A stretch of DNA of 64,000 nucleotides from an uncultured Gemmatimonadota bacterium (GTDB lineage Bacteria > Gemmatimonadota > Gemmatimonadetes > Palauibacterales > Palauibacteraceae): contig CAZDZJ010000135.1 of NCBI GenBank assembly GCA_964509895.1, positions 1,674 to 65,673 of the forward strand, read 5' to 3'. The notes beneath the pieces were generated by a model, which worked only from the letters and a program-made list of their open reading frames with translations, ran no database searches and was not told where the DNA came from. A program made the translations under genes and the position numbers. Positions 17,988-40,458 of this stretch are shown here, piece after piece. Numbering within the stretch: position 1 is the first letter of the stretch; each line of letters starts with the position of its first letter.

Positions 17988-19928
17988 ATGAACGTGTTCC
18001 TCGATGCCGGCCGGCGGGTGCTGGGGCTGTGCCTGGTGGTGCTGGTCGCCGTCCCGGTGTTCCTGATCCTCGACCCTGACGGGTCCACGACCCCGCTCGA
18101 CGTCCCCATGCGCCGCGCGGGGTTCGAGTACTGGTCGTATACGTGGGGCGCGGCGACCGGTGTCTGGACCCTCCTCGTCGTCGGAGTCGCAGTCCTGGCC
18201 GGGCTGTTGGGGAAGGGCAGGGTGTCCGGCATCCTGTCCCGGGTCGGCCGAGGCATCGCACGTCCGCCACCGTGGTCCGCGGCCGCGTTCATGGGGCTGC
18301 TCGGCGCCGGGCTCACGGCCGCCATCGCGGTGTGGGTGTTCGAGGGACGCACGCTGTTCAACGACGCGAGCGTACAGCTCGTACAGGCCCGTTATTTCGC
18401 CGGCGGGCAGCTGTCCGGACCGCCCCTCGCGCTGCCCGAGTTCTGGACGATTCAGTTCATGGTGCACACGGCGGCGGGGTGGGTGTCCCAGTATCCCCCG
18501 GCCCACGCGCTGTGGCTTGCGGCCGGCATGAAGCTGGGTGGCCCGTGGATCGCGGCGGCGGCGACCATGGGCATGCTCGGGGTCTTCTCCGTCCTCTCCT
18601 TCGAGCGCCTGTTCCCTGATCGGGCGGCGGCCGCGCGGCTCGGCGCCCTGCTCGCGGTCACGAGCCCCATGCTGCTGGCCCTCGCCGGGGCCTACATGAA
18701 CCACGCGACGGTCGCGGCCTTCGCCGCGCTCGCCCTCTGGCTTGCGCTCCGGGCGGAGACGGGCCGGACCGTGTGGGCGCTGGCGGCGGGCGGCGCGATG
18801 GGTTTCATGGTCGCGGCGCGCCCCGTCTCCGGGCTGCTCATCGGCGCCGCCGTGACGGCGGGCGTGTGGCTCACCGCGCCACGCCGGGAACCGGGCCTGC
18901 ACCGGCCGTGGCTCCTGCGCCGCTTCGCCTGGTGGGCCCTGGGCGGCCTCCCGTTCGCGGTCGGCTTCGCCTGGTACAACGCCCGCTTCTTCGGTGGCCC
19001 GCTCACCCTCGGCTATACGGCCGCCGCCGGCCCGAGCCACGGCCTCGGCTTTCACGTCGACCCGTGGGGTCGCGCATACGGCTTCACACAGGCGCTCGGC
19101 TACACATCGACCGAACTCATCGCGCTCGGACGCGAACTCCTCGGGACCGTGCTCCCGGTCGGTGCCCTGGTCGGCCTCTTTCTGCTCCTGGCTCGACGCC
19201 TGGATCGCGGCGAGCGGGTCCTGACCGCGTGGGCGCTGCTGCCCGTCCTGGCCAGCGCGCTGTACTGGCATCACGACCTCATCGTCGGCCCCCGCATGCT
19301 CGCCGACGCCGTCCCCGCGTGGTGCGCGCTCCTCGTGCTGGGGGTGGTCGGCCTCGCGCGCGTGGCCCGTCGCGGCTGGCTCTCGGACGCGGTCGCCGTT
19401 CTCGTGCTGGTCGCCATCGGCTACGGCCTCGCGGCCGGGGGGCGGGGGCGCGTCGTGCGCCTGACGGGCCGCCTCGCTCCCGTTCCGGAGGTCACGGAGC
19501 CCGGCCCGTCGCTCGTCTTCGTGCACGAGTCGTGGCAGGACCGGATCGGGGCCCGGCTCGCCGCGCGGCCCATGCGGCTCGACAGCGTGCGAGCCCTCAT
19601 CAACCAGTTCTCGCCGTGCCGCCTGGAGGGCGCGCTCGTCGGCGCACAGCGGCCGGAGGAAGTGGAGGCGCGGTGCCGGCGGGAGGCCGCCTCCGATCGG
19701 CTGAGGTGGCTCGGTCTCACCGATTACCTGTGGCGCGGCGACCTGCCCGGCCTCGGCGACTCGGGCGTGCTGTGGGTCCGCGATCTCGGCCCCGAGGCGA
19801 ACGCGCGCGTCATCGAGGCGTATCCCGACCGAACGCCCCTCTTCATCATGCCGGACAGCGGGGGTGGTGGTCAGCCGGTCCAATACGAGGTGGGCGTGAA
19901 CGCCCTGTGGGGCCCCGCTCCGCCCTAG
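17988..19928 (+). CDS. Polytopic membrane glycosyltransferase (GT-C / ArnT-like)
   Basis: About 13 hydrophobic segments; ND..VQLVQARYFAGG, SQYPP, YNARFFGGP, GPRML motifs. Confidence 0.65.
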   Translation: MNVFLDAGRRVLGLCLVVLVAVPVFLILDPDGSTTPLDVPMRRAGFEYWSYTWGAATGVWTLLVVGVAVLAGLLGKGRVSGILSRVGRGIARPPPWSAAAFMGLLGAGLTAAIAVWVFEGRTLFNDASVQLVQARYFAGGQLSGPPLALPEFWTIQFMVHTAAGWVSQYPPAHALWLAAGMKLGGPWIAAAATMGMLGVFSVLSFERLFPDRAAAARLGALLAVTSPMLLALAGAYMNHATVAAFAALALWLALRAETGRTVWALAAGGAMGFMVAARPVSGLLIGAAVTAGVWLTAPRREPGLHRPWLLRRFAWWALGGLPFAVGFAWYNARFFGGPLTLGYTAAAGPSHGLGFHVDPWGRAYGFTQALGYTSTELIALGRELLGTVLPVGALVGLFLLLARRLDRGERVLTAWALLPVLASALYWHHDLIVGPRMLADAVPAWCALLVLGVVGLARVARRGWLSDAVAVLVLVAIGYGLAAGGRGRVVRLTGRLAPVPEVTEPGPSLVFVHESWQDRIGARLAARPMRLDSVRALINQFSPCRLEGALVGAQRPEEVEARCRREAASDRLRWLGLTDYLWRGDLPGLGDSGVLWVRDLGPEANARVIEAYPDRTPLFIMPDSGGGGQPVQYEVGVNALWGPAPP

Positions 19929-20114
19929 CAGGCCGTGGCAAAAGCCCCGCTACGTTCGAGCGGCGCTGCATCTCGCCTGAAACGCTGCGCTCTGCGTCGC
20001 TCCTCGGTCAAATAGCGGTGCTATTCTCCGTCGTCGCTCCTCTCCCCAGAGGGGCCCCCGCCGAGCGCTTCACCGCTCTCGGCGCTGACGCGGGGTTTTG
20101 CCACGGCCTGCTAG
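19925..20114. mobile_element. MITE-like palindromic element, terminal type A (190 bp)
   Basis: Terminal inverted repeats ctagcaggccgtggcaaaa(g)ccccgc / gcggggttttgccacggcctgctag; CTAG at both ends; central hairpin aatagc-ggt-gctatt. Confidence 0.85.
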
Positions 20115-27345: not shown

Positions 27346-28872
27346 ATGCGCGCCCCCGATCGAACGTTCGTCACGCACCTGTGCTGTGCGCTTTCCCTCT
27401 CCCTGATCGGCCTCTCGGCCTGTGCGCCGGAGGACGCCGGCGAGGCCGGCGGGGACGAAGGCTCCGGCGAGACGCTCGCCGAGCGCCTGATCGCGCGCGG
27501 GGAAACGCTCGAGCTTCCGACGGAGTGGGATCCGCCGCCGGGCGAGCCGATCGTGCACCACACGGCGGGCTTCGCGAAGACGCTCTGCTCCGGGACGTTC
27601 ATCACGGGTCTGGACTGGCGCGACGCGGCGGCGAACGTGGGCGGCTTCACGGCGCCCTTCCAGCACCGTGGCGCGGTCGTCGACACGGTGGTCGACATGG
27701 AGGCACAGACGGTGAGCCTCACCCTCGGCTCGGGGATCACGCGCACGGCGAAGCTGTACGGCAGCCAGGGCTGCATCACGCACCCGCTGGGCCGGGACTC
27801 GATCTACTTCACGCCCTCCGTGGTCGAGCCGATGACCCCGGATCCCGCGACCACGCCGTGGCCCATGGGGGACGTCCTCCCGGACGAGCCGTTCCCGCCC
27901 GAGATCGACATGGAGAAGGTCGGGCAGGCGGTCGAGATCGCGATGGACCAGGAGGGGAAGACGCTCGGCTTCGTCGTCACATACAAGGGGCGGATCATCG
28001 GCGAGGACTACGGTCCGGGCGTCGACATGCACACGCCGTTCGAGAGCTGGTCGAAGGGGAAATCGCTCACCGGGACGCTGATGGCCGTCCTCATCCAGCA
28101 GGGCGTGTACGGCCTGTGGCAGCGCGCCCCGATCCCCGAATGGCAGGATGACGCAAGGAAGAACATCCGCATCGCCGACATCATGCGCATGTCGAGCGGG
28201 ATCCGGATCGTGGCGCCGCAGGACCCCGGCTATACGGAGGAGATGGGGTATCCCGACCACCTCTATCTCTACACGGGCGAGAACGCCTTCGAGTGGGCGG
28301 CCACCCGCCCGCAGCAGTGGGAGCCGAACACCGTGGGGCGGTACCGGAACACCGACCCGGCGCTCACGAACTACCTGGTCCGCCTCGGCGTGGAGGGACG
28401 CGGCGAGGACTATCACGCCTTCCCGCAGCGGAACCTGTTCGACAAGCTCGGGATCCGGAACTTCATCATGGAGACGGACCCGAACGGGAATTTCCTCACG
28501 CAGGGCTACGAGTTCGGCTCCGCGCGCGACTGGGCGCGGCTCGGCAACCTCTACCTGCAGGACGGGGTGTGGGAGGGCGAGCGCATCCTCCCGGAGGGCT
28601 ACGTCGACTACGCGATGGAAATCGCGCCGGCCTGGATCGCGGACGGACGGCCGACGTACGGCGGCGGCTTCGTGTGGAAGGACCTCGGCTTCCCGATCGA
28701 GGACGACTACGGCGCCTTCGCCGGGGCAGGTGGACAGTACACGGTCTTCGTCCCCGCGCGCGGCCTCGTCATCACGCGCCTCGGCAAGTACACGGGCCAG
28801 GGCCCCGGCGGGGACAACCTGGACGCCGCCATCGCCCTGCTCATGGAGGCCGTGCCCCCGATCAGCGACTAG
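27346..28872 (+). CDS. Serine hydrolase, beta-lactamase (class C-like) family lipoprotein
   Basis: Lipobox LSAC; SKGK (SxxK), YRN, ARDWARLG, GAGGQY. Confidence 0.85.
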   Translation: MRAPDRTFVTHLCCALSLSLIGLSACAPEDAGEAGGDEGSGETLAERLIARGETLELPTEWDPPPGEPIVHHTAGFAKTLCSGTFITGLDWRDAAANVGGFTAPFQHRGAVVDTVVDMEAQTVSLTLGSGITRTAKLYGSQGCITHPLGRDSIYFTPSVVEPMTPDPATTPWPMGDVLPDEPFPPEIDMEKVGQAVEIAMDQEGKTLGFVVTYKGRIIGEDYGPGVDMHTPFESWSKGKSLTGTLMAVLIQQGVYGLWQRAPIPEWQDDARKNIRIADIMRMSSGIRIVAPQDPGYTEEMGYPDHLYLYTGENAFEWAATRPQQWEPNTVGRYRNTDPALTNYLVRLGVEGRGEDYHAFPQRNLFDKLGIRNFIMETDPNGNFLTQGYEFGSARDWARLGNLYLQDGVWEGERILPEGYVDYAMEIAPAWIADGRPTYGGGFVWKDLGFPIEDDYGAFAGAGGQYTVFVPARGLVITRLGKYTGQGPGGDNLDAAIALLMEAVPPISD

Positions 28873-29035
28873 TGTAGTGTCGCAGAAATCCTCGAGGCAC
28901 CGAGAGTGCCGGGGCGCCGGCCTCCGCAAGGCGCTCCGACGAGCAATAGCCGTACTATTGCGAGGAGGAGCAACGCCGCGGGGACGGATGCAGCGGCGCT
29001 CGAATGACCGCAGGATTTCTGCGACACTACACTAG
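28869..29035. mobile_element. MITE-like palindromic element, terminal type B (167 bp)
   Basis: Perfect 24-bp TIR ctagtgtagtgtcgcagaaatcct / aggatttctgcgacactacactag; central hairpin gcaatag-ccgta-ctattgc; lies between convergent genes. Confidence 0.9.
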
Positions 29036-29920
29036 GCCGGTCGGGCCGCGCTCCGCGGCCAGGCGCCGGGCGCGAGGACCGAGGTCGGGGGCGTCGAGGA
29101 TGGTGGCGACGAGTTCGAAGTCGTCGCGGGGGCCCGTCCATTCGAGGTCATCGACGCTCGCTGACACCGGGGCGTCGCGGACGAGTGTGGCGAGGTGGCG
29201 GAAGAGGAGCGCGTCTTCCAATCCGCCACGCAGTGTCCGGGCGAGGCGTTCGGGGCCCCGGACCGAGACATCCCAGTCTCGCCCGTCCGAGGGGATGTCA
29301 TCGATGCGGCCATAGCGGGCCAGCACCGCAGCGGCGGTCTTCGCGCCGAAGCCGCGGATGCCGGGGAAACCATCCGCGGAATCTCCGACCAGGGCCAGCC
29401 AGTCGGGGATCGCGGCGGGTGCGACGCCGAACTTCTCGATGACGCCGGTCTCGTCGCGCAGCAGGCGCTGCCGCCGGTCGAACTGCACGATGCGGTCGCC
29501 CTCCACGCACTGGGCGAGATCCTTGTCGGGCGTGCAGAGGAAGACGCGCTCCACGCGCGGGTCCGCGGCGGCCATCCGGGCGCCGGAGGCCATCCCGTCG
29601 TCCGCTTCGTGCTCCACCATCGGCCACACGACGAACCCCGCCGAGGCGAGGGCCTCCTCGACAAGCGGGAACTGCGAGTAGAGCGCCGGATCGATCCCGC
29701 TGCCGTCCTTGTAGCCGGGCCACAGGTCGTTGCGGAACGACTCGATGACGCGGTCCGTGGCGATCGCGACGTGGGTGGCGCCGCCCTCGAGGAGCCCGAG
29801 CATCGAACCCACCACGCCGCGCGCCGCCCCCACCTCGTGGCCGCCCGCGTTCTTCGCCGAGGGCGCTCCGTAGAAGTGCCGGAACAATTCGTAGGTGCCA
29901 TCGATGAGGTGGACCTGCAC
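29027..29920 (-). CDS. Stand-alone 5'-3' exonuclease / flap endonuclease
   Basis: HLIDGTYELFR, SFRNDLWPGYK, EADD, DKDLAQ, LVGDSADGFPGIRGFGAKTA (H3TH). Confidence 0.9.
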   Translation of the reverse strand: MQVHLIDGTYELFRHFYGAPSAKNAGGHEVGAARGVVGSMLGLLEGGATHVAIATDRVIESFRNDLWPGYKDGSGIDPALYSQFPLVEEALASAGFVVWPMVEHEADDGMASGARMAAADPRVERVFLCTPDKDLAQCVEGDRIVQFDRRQRLLRDETGVIEKFGVAPAAIPDWLALVGDSADGFPGIRGFGAKTAAAVLARYGRIDDIPSDGRDWDVSVRGPERLARTLRGGLEDALLFRHLATLVRDAPVSASVDDLEWTGPRDDFELVATILDAPDLGPRARRLAAERGPTGLV

Positions 29921-30119
29921 GCGAACCCGACCTCCGCTGATTCTCTCGCTGGCGACTGCCCCCCGTCCCGATCCCCGCCCCGGAAGCGTCGTGGTCCGGA
30001 GCGCCGCGTGCAACGGGCGGGTCCGGGGACTGGTGCCGGGGGGGCGCCGGTGTACCTTTGGTGGCCTTCCGCCGGCCCCGTTGGCCGGCCGCGGTTCCGC
30101 TCGCTGCGAGGCGTTCGAC

Positions 30120-31298
30120 GTGAGCCAGCTCCAACAGGTCTCGACCCCCGGGGGTGACATCGCTACGCCGCCCATCACCCGGGCGGCGATCGCGGGCGCC
30201 GAGCGCATCGTCCTCAAGGTGGGGACGGGGGTCGTCACGCATGCCGACGGGACGATCGCCCTCTCTCGGCTTTTTCGAGTGGTGGAGAGCGCCAGCCGCC
30301 TGCGGCGGGAGGGTCGGGAAGTCCTGATCGTCACTTCGGGCGCGGTGGGCCTGGGTCGTGTCGCCCTCCAGCTCCCCGAACCGCCCGCGACGGCCGAAGA
30401 GAAGCAGACGTGCGCCGCCGTCGGCCAGAGCCGGCTCATGGAACTCTACCAGCAGGGCTTCGGCCGGCTCGGCGTCACCTGCGCGCAGATTCTCATCACG
30501 TGGACGGACTTCGATGACCGGGTCCGCTACCTGAACCTGCACGAGACGCTCCAGAGCCTCTTCCGGCTCGGCGTGGTTCCGGTGGTGAACGAGAACGACG
30601 CGATCTCGCTGAACGATCGCGTGTACCGCGGGACCGGCAAGCGGCCGATCTTCGACGACAACGACCGGCTGGGAGCCCTGGTGGCGAGCGAACTGGCGGC
30701 GGATCTGATCGTGCTGCTGACCGACGTGCCGGGGGTCATGACGGCCGACCCCAGGCGCGACCCGGAGGCGCGGCTCATCGGCCGGATCGAGCGCCCGGAC
30801 GACCACGGGCTCGATGTGGACGGCCGCTCGGGGCTCGGCCGCGGCGGCATGGCGAGCAAGCTGGAGGCGGCGTCGGTCGCGTCCCGCGGCGGGTGCCACA
30901 CCGTCATCGCGTCGGGCGTCGATCCCGAGGCCCTCGACCGGGTCCTGGCCGGCGAGGAGGAAGGGACGTGGATCCCGCCTCGGGCCGCGCTGTCCTCGCG
31001 CAGCCGCTGGATCGCCTATTGTTCACATCCGCGCGGGACGCTCGTTCTGGCCGAGGGAGCCGCCGAACGCCTGCGGCGCGGTGAATCGCTGCGGGCCGCC
31101 GACGTCGCGCGGGGGGACGGCGCGTTCCGGCGGGGCGACGTGGTCGAGGTCCTGGCGCTCGACGGATCCCTCGTCGGCCGGGGCGTCGTCGCGCTCGATT
31201 CGAGGCTCGTCCTCCAGGCGATCTCCCACGATCGTGCCGCCGCCGTCGAACTCGTGGGGCGGGAGCATCTCATCCTCAAGGAAACGAGCGATGACTGA
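30120..31298 (+). CDS. proB: Glutamate 5-kinase
   Basis: IVLKVGT, VTSGAV, AAVGQSRLM, VNENDA, DNDRL, GRGGMASK, C-terminal PUA domain; start approximate. Confidence 0.93.
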   Translation: MSQLQQVSTPGGDIATPPITRAAIAGAERIVLKVGTGVVTHADGTIALSRLFRVVESASRLRREGREVLIVTSGAVGLGRVALQLPEPPATAEEKQTCAAVGQSRLMELYQQGFGRLGVTCAQILITWTDFDDRVRYLNLHETLQSLFRLGVVPVVNENDAISLNDRVYRGTGKRPIFDDNDRLGALVASELAADLIVLLTDVPGVMTADPRRDPEARLIGRIERPDDHGLDVDGRSGLGRGGMASKLEAASVASRGGCHTVIASGVDPEALDRVLAGEEEGTWIPPRAALSSRSRWIAYCSHPRGTLVLAEGAAERLRRGESLRAADVARGDGAFRRGDVVEVLALDGSLVGRGVVALDSRLVLQAISHDRAAAVELVGREHLILKETSDD

Positions 31299-32580
31299 GA
31301 CGCTGCGGGAGCGGGCGGCCGGGGTACGGAAGGCGCAGCGCACGATCGGAAGCGTGCCGGCGGCGCGCCGGACGGCGGCGTTGCGCGCCCTGAGAGCCGT
31401 GCTGGTCCGCTCGCGCGGCGAGATCTCGCGGGCGAATGACGAAGACCTCGAGCGGGCCGCGGAGGAAGGGCTTTCCGGGGCGCTCCTCCACCGACTGGGG
31501 CTGCCCGACGCCAAGTTCGAGAGCCTGCTCGACGGGATCGACGCGCTCGTCGAAGGCGAAGATCCGATCGACCGTGTCCTGACGCGGACGGAACTCGATG
31601 AGGGTCTCGTCCTCGAGCGTGTGAGCAGCCCGCTCGGCGTGCTCCTCATCATCTTCGAGAGCCGTCCCGACGCGGTCATCCAGATCGGGTCGCTCGCCAT
31701 CCGCTCGGGGAACGGCGTGATCATGAAGGGGGGGCGCGAGGCGGCGCGTTCGAACGAGGTGCTCGTCGGCTGCCTGCAGCGGGCGCTGGAGGAGGCGGGA
31801 CTCGATCGTCGGGCGGTCCTCGGCGTCCCGGACCGGCGCGATGTCGACGAATTGCTCGCCCTGGACGACCTCATCGACCTCGTCATCCCCCGGGGCTCCG
31901 GGGCGCTGGTGCGTTCGATCCAGGAGCGGAGCCGGATTCCGGTGCTGGGTCACGCGGAGGGGGTATGTCACCTCTTCGTGGACGCCTCGGCCGATCCGGA
32001 GATGGCGATGCGGATGGCGGTGGATGGGAAGTGCGACTACCCGGCCGCCTGCAACGCGACCGAGACGCTGCTCGTGCACGCAGCGTTTCTGCCGCGGTTG
32101 GGGCCGGTCGGAGAAGCCCTGCGCGAACAGGGCGTGGAACTCCGCTGCGACCCGCCGGCTCGCGGTGCCCTGCCGTGGGCCGAAGCCGCCTCGAACGAAG
32201 ACTGGGGAGTCGAGTTCGGGGAACTGACGCTCGCCGTGCGGACCGTCGGGAGCCTGGAGGAGGCCGTCGATCACATCCACACCTACGGGAGCAGCCACAC
32301 CGACGCGATCGTGGCCGAAGACCGGGAGGTGGCGGAGCGGTTTCTGACGGCGGTCGACGCGGCGAGCGTGTTCCACAACGCGAGCACCCGCTTCGCGGAC
32401 GGCTTCCGATACGGGCTCGGGGCCGAGGTCGGAATCAGCACGGCGCGCATCCACGCGCGCGGGCCGGTCGGTGTCGAGGGCCTCCTGACGACGCGCTGGC
32501 TGCTGCGCGGCGAGGGGCAGGGCGCCGCGGACTACGGCCCCGGCAAGCGAAGCTTCACGCACCGCCCGATGGACGGCTAG
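31291..32580 (+). CDS. proA: Glutamate-5-semialdehyde dehydrogenase
   Basis: IFESRP, IPRG, ACNATETLL, HNASTRFADG..GAEVGIST..HARGPVG. Confidence 0.95.
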   Translation: MTETLRERAAGVRKAQRTIGSVPAARRTAALRALRAVLVRSRGEISRANDEDLERAAEEGLSGALLHRLGLPDAKFESLLDGIDALVEGEDPIDRVLTRTELDEGLVLERVSSPLGVLLIIFESRPDAVIQIGSLAIRSGNGVIMKGGREAARSNEVLVGCLQRALEEAGLDRRAVLGVPDRRDVDELLALDDLIDLVIPRGSGALVRSIQERSRIPVLGHAEGVCHLFVDASADPEMAMRMAVDGKCDYPAACNATETLLVHAAFLPRLGPVGEALREQGVELRCDPPARGALPWAEAASNEDWGVEFGELTLAVRTVGSLEEAVDHIHTYGSSHTDAIVAEDREVAERFLTAVDAASVFHNASTRFADGFRYGLGAEVGISTARIHARGPVGVEGLLTTRWLLRGEGQGAADYGPGKRSFTHRPMDG

Positions 32581-32743
32581 TGTCGTGTCCCGGAAATACC
32601 ACGGCTATTCGAGCGCCGATGCATCCGGCTCCGTGGCGTTGCTCCTCCTCGAAATGGCGCTGCCATTCCTCGTCGGAGCGCCTTGCGGAAGCCGGCGCCT
32701 CGGCACTCTCGGTAGCTCGCGTATTTCCGGGACACGACACTAG
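32577..32743. mobile_element. MITE-like palindromic element, terminal type B (167 bp), opposite orientation to the 28869 copy
   Basis: 23-bp TIR ctagtgtcgtgtcccggaaatac / gtatttccgggacacgacactag; ungapped alignment to reverse complement of 28869-29035. Confidence 0.9.
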
Positions 32744-40307: not shown

Positions 40308-40412
40308 GTAGCAGTCCGTGGAAAAACCCCGCGTCAGCGACGTTGGCGTAGCGATTCAGGCGAGGTGCATTCGCCGCTCGAACCAAGCGGGGCTTTTGCC
40401 ACGGGCTGCTGG
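40308..40412. mobile_element. Internally deleted, degenerate copy of the type A element (105 bp)
   Basis: gtagcagtccgtggaaaaaccccgcgtcagcg...cgctcgaaccaagcggggcttttgccacgggctgctgg matches both ends of the reverse complement of 19925-20114. Confidence 0.8.
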
Positions 40413-40458
40413 TACATCTTCCCGGAGTGACCCCGTAGACGGAGCGGACCCTCGAGCC

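Follow-up and report, generated by a model that had tools for sequence, protein, structure and literature searches.

Two copies of a mobile IS630-type repeat in an uncultured Gemmatimonadota bacterium fold into a strand-specific rod with a conserved G.A core

Short, non-coding mobile repeats have been described in several bacteria. RUP elements are short, bounded by terminal inverted repeats (TIRs) that resemble the ends of an IS630-family insertion sequence (IS), and insert at TA (excerpts of PMC2229807). bcr1 of the Bacillus cereus group and the Correia (NEMIS) elements of Neisseria are likewise mobile, measure about 105-155 bp and give rise to transcripts that fold; compensatory base-pair changes preserving the RNA structure are reported for bcr1, and Correia elements act on neighbouring mRNAs (excerpts of PMC3184786 and PMC2229807). 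In the CIR repeats of Caulobacter and Brucella an interior motif and a predicted RNA structure are conserved between genera (excerpts of PMC2229807). Here we describe a 167-nt element found in two inverted copies, B1 and B2, in a 64,000-nt stretch (the window) of contig C135 of an uncultured Gemmatimonadota bacterium (assembly of 3.4 Mb, 69% G+C, 143 contigs, 93% complete). It is a MITE (miniature inverted-repeat transposable element) of IS630 type, folding on one strand into a rod with an asymmetric core at its apex.

By mechanism RUP and its IS630-Spn1 are the closest of these systems, the elements described here likewise having IS630-family end matches and CTAG sites. RUP is attributed to IS630-Spn1, whereas the ISs that match the B elements come from other genomes of the genus, this assembly having yielded none. 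For RUP the excerpts of PMC2229807 give no structure or functional motif beyond the TIRs; the B elements have a covarying rod and a core shared across phyla. As folding, transcribed repeats bcr1 and Correia come closest. We found no sequence likeness to either, and neither is reported in the excerpts to carry a cross-phylum core; the 5-bp direct repeats of bcr1 differ from the CTAG/TA target and IS630-type ends seen here. In CIR repeats what is conserved is a GANTC methylation site placed in a loop, and the structure has two arms and a linker (excerpts of PMC2229807), unlike the single rod of the B elements with its G.A-rich internal-loop core spread across phyla.

A covarying rod on one strand

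B1 and the reverse complement of B2 align without gaps over their whole length, with 28 mismatches in 167 positions (83.2% identity); the original prediction, made from the two copies, had counted the same number by hand. Without reverse complementing, B2 has 84 mismatches to B1. A repeat search recovered the same 167-nt pair at 83%, and the correspondence between the copies far exceeds what chance would give. Their terminal stems pair without any mismatch, over 24 bp (B1) or 23 bp (B2). Four arm mismatches are mirrored in the opposite arm with the stems left intact, as had been proposed: the pairs 8/160, 14/154, 16/152 and 22/146 change from A-T to C-G, G-C to C-G, A-T to G-C and C-G to A-T, respectively. 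At a fifth mirrored position pair, 24/144, B1 has T-A where B2 has G/G. The central hairpin differs between the copies by one compensated pair (A-T to G-C) and one change from C-G to G.T, in agreement with the covariation including a G.U pair that had been claimed for it. The blocks GACGA and GAGGA, said to be invariant, are indeed identical in both copies and face each other in the fold.

In the genus 57 distinct full-length copies were collected. After removal of L102, which carries an internal deletion, 56 entered the fold alignment, in which RNAalifold draws the entire element into one rod, with -155.6 on the + strand of our model versus -141.0 on the other strand. The 64 pairs of the 56 copies comprise 3184 Watson-Crick, 218 G.U, 45 A.C and 137 other cells. 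Changes were traced by parsimony on a FastTree tree with midpoint root, and pairs 1-4 (the CTAG ends) were excluded from the totals of G.U, A.C and double changes. Internal branches carry 27 changes to G.U versus 4 to A.C (p 3e-5), terminal branches 39 versus 22. Double changes occur 27 times on internal branches, 17 of them in the interior. Considered alone, the interior shows 18 single-branch changes on both sides of a pair, and 34 G.U-type versus 11 A.C-type departures. At pairs 8, 20, 29, 39, 55 and 80 both Watson-Crick states are seen together with a G.U intermediate. Mutation bias does not account for the G.U excess, since the unpaired columns lack an excess of C>T and A>G (16, versus 26 G>A and T>C). 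Furthermore, when each arm of 22 family representatives was compared with the reverse complement of the other arm, 66 mismatches were of G.U type and 33 of A.C type.

The + strand is the more stable one with RNA parameters in all 56 genus copies (mean difference 15.8 kcal/mol) and in 37 of 38 metagenome elements, and with DNA parameters in 54 of 56 and 38 of 38, respectively. The rod hairpin is thus real, strand-specific and covarying. Folding more copies on both strands with RNAalifold, the check suggested along with the original prediction, leaves the interior signal in place and favours the + strand. The proposed selection on a single-stranded fold is in this way supported by the covariation of the interior in 56 copies and by a strand preference in 56 of 56; for the arms, which mostly follow IS classes, it was not supported as proposed (see below).

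The apical core in elements with unrelated ends

In the B family the core at the rod apex reads C, an AA bulge, GGC, GC, TC C GA C GA G and a variable hairpin, followed by C GA G GA G GA GC, an AAC bulge and GCC G. The usual form is C, the AA bulge, GGC, GC, (GA C)x2 GA G, the variable hairpin, then C (GA G)x2 GA GC, the AAC bulge and GCC G, that is, three tandem G.A steps with C-G pairs as spacers. The B family has TC in place of the first GA, and this TC pairs with the opposite GA, turning a G.A/A.G step into U-A/C-G. This swap is intelligible only with the two blocks facing each other in a helix.

The two-block pattern occurs at 120 or more metagenome loci (at least 120). Among the matches listed, 79 have 45 nt on both sides and give 76 distinct sequences in 34 arm clusters, 4 of which resemble chance matches in coding DNA. 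A 14-nt inverted repeat brackets the core in 44 of the 67 loci with enough flank, again among the matches listed; the bracketed elements measure 150-305 nt and have many unrelated end types. In the scan of species genomes the pattern was loose and 116 of 120 loci were chance matches. The 4 genuine relatives belong to Acidobacteriota, Rokubacteria and a deltaproteobacterial metagenome-assembled genome, and their ends are unlike those of the B family. When 151 genomes sampled from the phylum were scanned with model R1, 18 of them, in 13 of 82 genera, had a match to the core.

For the core a set of 40 sequences was picked by hand: each cluster contributed roughly one, and B1, B2, two further types from the genus, type A (see below) and three genome loci were added. 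In this set RNAalifold finds covariation at 18 of 20 pairs. The covariation score is 0.422 versus 0.133 +/- 0.010 after shuffling (reached in 0 of 500 shuffles) and at most 0.096 with the partners slid. Covarying helices enclose the non-canonical blocks, as they would in any strand-specific hairpin, be it RNA or DNA. The left block CAAGGCGCGA, which lies outside the search pattern, is at least 90% conserved. The loop singled out in the original prediction is accordingly part of a core conserved far outside the genus. This core is conserved, asymmetric and undescribed: its exact strings are absent from the literature searched, where word searches yielded general MITE papers alone. Its presence between widely differing MITE ends points to purifying selection on the core, not to recency, because the arms have diverged past alignment while the non-palindromic core is nearly invariant, including letters that were not searched for.

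Two further elements of the window, termed type A (ends CTAGCAGGCCGTGGCAAAAGCC..., positions 19925-20114 and about 40308-40413), belong to the same superfamily. The 190-nt copy has a core-like module on the window - strand (R1 match 19977-20059, E 1.3e-4), and the other copy, shortened by deletion to about 105 nt, has ends that are degenerate. Type A ends adjoin 32 genomic CTAGs. In a complete genome of the same class, locus L362 (G113:C1:4079240-4079800) is a head-to-tail tandem array of type-A-like elements with shared junction bases, each member carrying a two-G.A variant of the core.

Ends, target site and copies

The B2 arm agrees with IS630-family IS ends at up to 22 of 23 positions (the L076 end; ISs L088 and L083, 1177 bp), and the B1 arm with the left end of a different IS at 20 of 23 (L356-L358; ISs of 1140 bp in genomes G012 and G009). 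Both IS types encode DDE_3 transposases with HTH_23/28/29/32 domains, and a DDE_3 gene is present in 9 of 36 genus genomes. As each end type matches a different IS630-family IS, the mirrored arm changes mark two end or transposase classes. Further end classes, with arms matching within each, exist in other genomes. On sequence comparison the four mirrored differences thus appear to be largely a matter of two transposase/end classes, the arms being the predicted transposase-binding ends. Here the original prediction, which read the arm covariation as selection on the fold or arm-to-arm conversion and not as transposase ends, was not supported as worded: this genome has 8 B1-type and 6 B2-type copies, each type with its own IS end. 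The arms do split into two IS classes, an outcome named beforehand as speaking against a selected fold, while the interior keeps its covariation and strand preference contrary to the other half of that expectation.

Beyond about 23 nt the MITEs and the ISs are unrelated, and nhmmer with the MITE profile against 23 IS loci revealed no interior likeness. We therefore rejected the interior as a deletion derivative of these ISs, the likeness stopping at about 23 nt. The arms of the MITEs are symmetrical over 23-24 nt versus about 15 nt between the two ends of a matching IS. An origin as REP/REPIN-RAYT elements was rejected, too, as the 93%-complete genome has no match to PF01797 (Y1/HUH), the TIRs are long and the target is CTAG. 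Locus L076 (G042:C42:1-2876) holds two kinds of IS630-family IS which abut at shared CTAGs (ends 791/792 and 2015/2016), one being inserted into, or at the end of, another.

This genome contains 16 full-length copies, namely 8 of B1 type, 6 of B2 type, one hybrid (C48) and one divergent copy (C53:49074), besides many half copies, several of them at contig ends. Copies are present in 15 of 24, 4 of 5 and 1 of 5 genomes of three further sets from the genus (20 of 34 in total), and in 0 of 16 genomes searched of the sister family. Viral contigs gave 0 matches to the element, and blastn against plasmids left it without a match. Both sites are empty in X4, a DNA run of a strain with about 95-97% identity, whose contigs join 28872 to 29035 and 32576 to 32740. 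The contigs of runs X3, X4 and X5 diverge exactly at 28869, 29035, 32577 and 32743, and the elements are covered 5-14 times as deeply as their flanks. With a length of 167 nt, no coding content, dispersed copies and TIRs of 24 nt (B1) or 23 nt (B2), B1 and B2 are MITEs of IS630 type, an ordinary kind of element. The features of both copies are compiled in Table 1.

Table 1. Positions of B1, B2 and associated features in the window
Feature	Window positions	Strand	Remarks
B1, MITE copy of B1 subfamily, 167 nt	28869..29035	+	model + strand = window +; site empty in X4 contigs
B1 left terminal inverted repeat, begins CTAG	28869..28892	+	24 nt; pairs at 100% with 29012-29035
B1 right terminal inverted repeat, CTAG at its end	29012..29035	+	24-nt perfect inverted repeat
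B1 apical core module	28927..28978	+	model R1 match C135:30584-30666, E 4.8e-16
B2, MITE copy of B2 subfamily, 167 nt	32577..32743	-	model + strand = window -; site empty in X4 contigs
B2 terminal inverted repeat, window-left arm	32577..32599	+	23 nt, 100%; 22/23 = L076 IS end
B2 terminal inverted repeat, window-right arm	32721..32743	+	23-nt perfect inverted repeat
B2 apical core module	32634..32685	-	model R1 match C135:34292-34374, E 5.6e-15
TAG stop of open reading frame (ORF) 27346..28872 (beta-lactamase family)	28870..28872	+	inside left CTAG of B1
TAG stop of ORF 29032..29901	29032..29034	-	inside right CTAG of B1
TAG stop of proA-like ORF (Aldedh family)	32578..32580	+	inside CTAG of B2

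Every intact copy is bounded by CTAG..CTAG, and IS630 is known to prefer CTAG. At the X4 joint of B2 four letters (CTAG) fit both sides; at that of B1 one extra base remains. A repeated TA within CTAG and a 4-bp duplication of CTAG yield identical sequence, and the degenerate flanks CCAG..CCAG of L065 indicate repetition of at least the central two bases and no more. CTAG is about 16-fold under-represented in the genome (588 observed versus 9700 expected), and B-type ends adjoin 90 of the genomic sites. In 25 of the 57 copies a terminal CTAG provides a TAG stop. B1 is flanked by convergent ORFs which both end within its terminal CTAGs. That the element ends coincide with stop codons is therefore a by-product of the CTAG target.

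Between the inverted copies lie proB-like (AA_kinase and PUA) and proA-like (Aldedh) genes, at 30120-32580, which overlap by a few bases. In principle the pair B1 and B2 could be a composite unit; there is no sign of this, and each site is empty independently in the X4 contigs. In both copies an ATG at element position 120 (window 28988-29035 and its counterpart in B2) opens a frame of 15 codons up to the terminal TAG, and the surrounding nucleotides GGATGCA are conserved in many families. A coding function of this frame was rejected: B1 and B2 disagree in 7 of the 15 codons, with 5 residue changes, the frame of other families continues past the element, and the length of the apical hairpin varies by non-multiples of three.

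Among the variants, the hybrid (G000 C48:7683-7849) has a B1-like left arm, a partly B2-like right arm and T.G at pair 8/160; this very insertion, with the same flanks, is also present in another genome of the genus (orthologous copies L035 and L249). Forms of 185 nt, with an 18-nt insertion duplicating the apical hairpin, occur in different end classes (G000 C59:68-252, C53:49074-49258, L064, L065), which suggests subfamily exchange or an old polymorphism. The copy at G000 C118:7923-8030 is internally deleted to 108 nt. Palindromes of 23-38 nt made of two facing arm starts (G000 C1:51333-51358, C110:38369-38391, C10:12270-12307) and numerous solo arm starts (105 genomic sites with at most 2 mismatches to the 13-nt arm start) may possibly be excision footprints or decayed copies. 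The copies in G000 C18, C59 and C139 each begin at contig base 68, and others lie at the ends of C70 and C130. These contig-end copies share flanks pairwise; the repeat therefore breaks the assembly. Some of them may be assembly-graph variants.

What may be selected in the fold

In the explanation we prefer, IS630-family transposases would move the 167-nt non-autonomous transposon in trans into the TA of CTAG. As CTAG is rare and often a stop codon, the element would rebuild TAG stops at its own ends, and the existence of two transposase/end classes would give rise to the mirrored arm differences. The whole element would be kept as a single rod hairpin on one strand, with pairs changing via G.U intermediates and double changes while A.C states would not be propagated. 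At its apex the rod bears the asymmetric, near-invariant core with its tandem G.A pairs, C-G spacers and bordering AA and AAC bulges, common to MITEs with unrelated ends in several phyla. The single-stranded + form would be the target of selection, most likely as a transcript with the core bound by a conserved cellular partner. Mobility, target site, IS match, covariation, strand asymmetry and core spread are seen in the data; that RNA is the selected form and that the core binds something is what we infer, and we regard the explanation in its full length as an even call. A further reading, which we put forward tentatively, takes the apical module, with a covarying helix on either side, as an undescribed functional motif, in RNA or single-stranded DNA, that would be carried across phyla as MITE cargo, the MITE ends being repeatedly swapped or re-evolved for different IS630-type transposases. 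The module might then be e.g. a putative binding site for a universal cellular machine or a small catalytic fold.

Several observations weigh against a selected transcript with a bound core. The 24 core letters demanded by the search pattern are invariant by construction. The copies behind the branch counts are related, the 167 columns that were scored also gave the tree, and ties in the parsimony were resolved in favour of Watson-Crick states. The assembly, 93% complete, yielded no DDE_3 transposase gene, the matching ISs being located in other genus genomes. In the phylum a DDE_3 gene accompanies the core in only 8 of 18 genomes versus 29 of 133 core-less ones (p 0.045, or 0.041 without G107, for genomes whose kinship makes them non-independent). 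With Rfam 15 the whole window had no match at gathering score; the searches with B1 (E up to 10) and with 20 core loci (E up to 1) gave chance-level hits only (Pseudomon-Rho, nhaA-I and plant miRNA models). Of 50 copies, 11 point the same way as the neighbouring genes and 8 the opposite way, 7 stand between convergent genes and 24 fit none of these, which is no bias by crude GC3-based gene calls that left these 24 of 50 unclassified. B2 is antisense to read-through from proA, scans for sigma-70-like promoters and intrinsic terminators in and beside both copies gave 0 sites, and the orientation to local GC skew is unbiased as well (9 of 16 copies). Finally, DNA as well forms stable G.T wobbles and tandem G.A pairs, and the fold data therefore fit RNA and single-stranded DNA alike.

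X24, a metatranscriptome and the one RNA run found (contigs; word share 0.05), contributes two contigs of 58-59 nt on 32692-32742, with 5-6 differences and no information on strand or ends. B1 is not covered in X24, and the two contigs on the B2 arm may stem from other copies or from DNA. Of the originally proposed single-stranded fold, "probably RNA", the fold is supported; the RNA part stays a supposition, given the lack of a gene-orientation bias and an RNA run that is uninformative.

A DNA hairpin is the alternative that survives best, although we think it unlikely. According to it the + strand would fold as DNA, for example at the replication fork or during repair, and aid, or be required for, mobilisation or the gain of copies, the core being read by a conserved DNA-handling host protein by analogy with integron attC sites and IS200/IS605 ends. 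These are DNA hairpins of variable sequence and conserved structure which are read on one strand, and the likeness holds under this alternative only. The B elements differ from them in not lying in cassette arrays, in having TIRs and a TA/CTAG target, and in that a Y1 transposase was not found. The excess of G.U is stronger on internal than on terminal branches (27:4 versus 39:22, Fisher p 0.027) and thus mainly on propagating branches, which fits selection on the formation of new copies over selection on resident ones. A DNA hairpin does not lead one to expect a gene-orientation bias, and none was found; DNA parameters favour the + strand, too (54/56, 38/38), and the perfect arms of 23-24 nt exceed the agreement of about 15 nt between the matching IS ends. 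On the other hand, IS630/Tc1-mariner transposases are not known to use a single-strand step. The orientation to local GC skew is unbiased here (9/16), and a Y1/HUH transposase was not found in this genome. Moreover, transposases of this group are described as cut-and-paste enzymes acting on double-stranded ends, in excerpts on ISY100 and otherwise as general background.

Quite improbable, in our view, is that no fold is selected at all. Two transposase classes together with arm-to-arm copying, by foldback, template switching or mismatch correction in a transient hairpin, would then produce the symmetry of the arms, and the interior would have been inherited by a young, horizontally spreading MITE lineage. 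The arm classes are indeed IS classes, MITEs generally need no function, and no orientation bias, promoter or terminator was detected. Many double changes are of transversion type (e.g. G-C to C-G, pairs 8, 14, 51, 58 and 69), for which there is no wobble route. However, arm copying treats G.T-type and A.C-type mismatches alike and predicts neither 27:4 nor 66:33, nor does it predict a + strand that wins in 93 of 94 elements. It also fits poorly with arms that have diverged past alignment between families around a nearly invariant non-palindromic core, and copying of the arms through the apex would wipe out the asymmetry of this core.

MITEs are usually seen as junk defined by their ends; here the ends vary, one strand is clearly preferred, and an asymmetric interior core is conserved between families whose ends are unrelated and across phyla. 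In these uncultured genomes of high G+C the family explains many contig breaks, CTAG sites and TAG stops, and model R1 offers a means of annotating its copies. If the core has a partner, it would add to the known structured nucleic-acid motifs a new one, open to study in thousands of natural variants, and be a functional module that spreads by hitch-hiking on several transposases.

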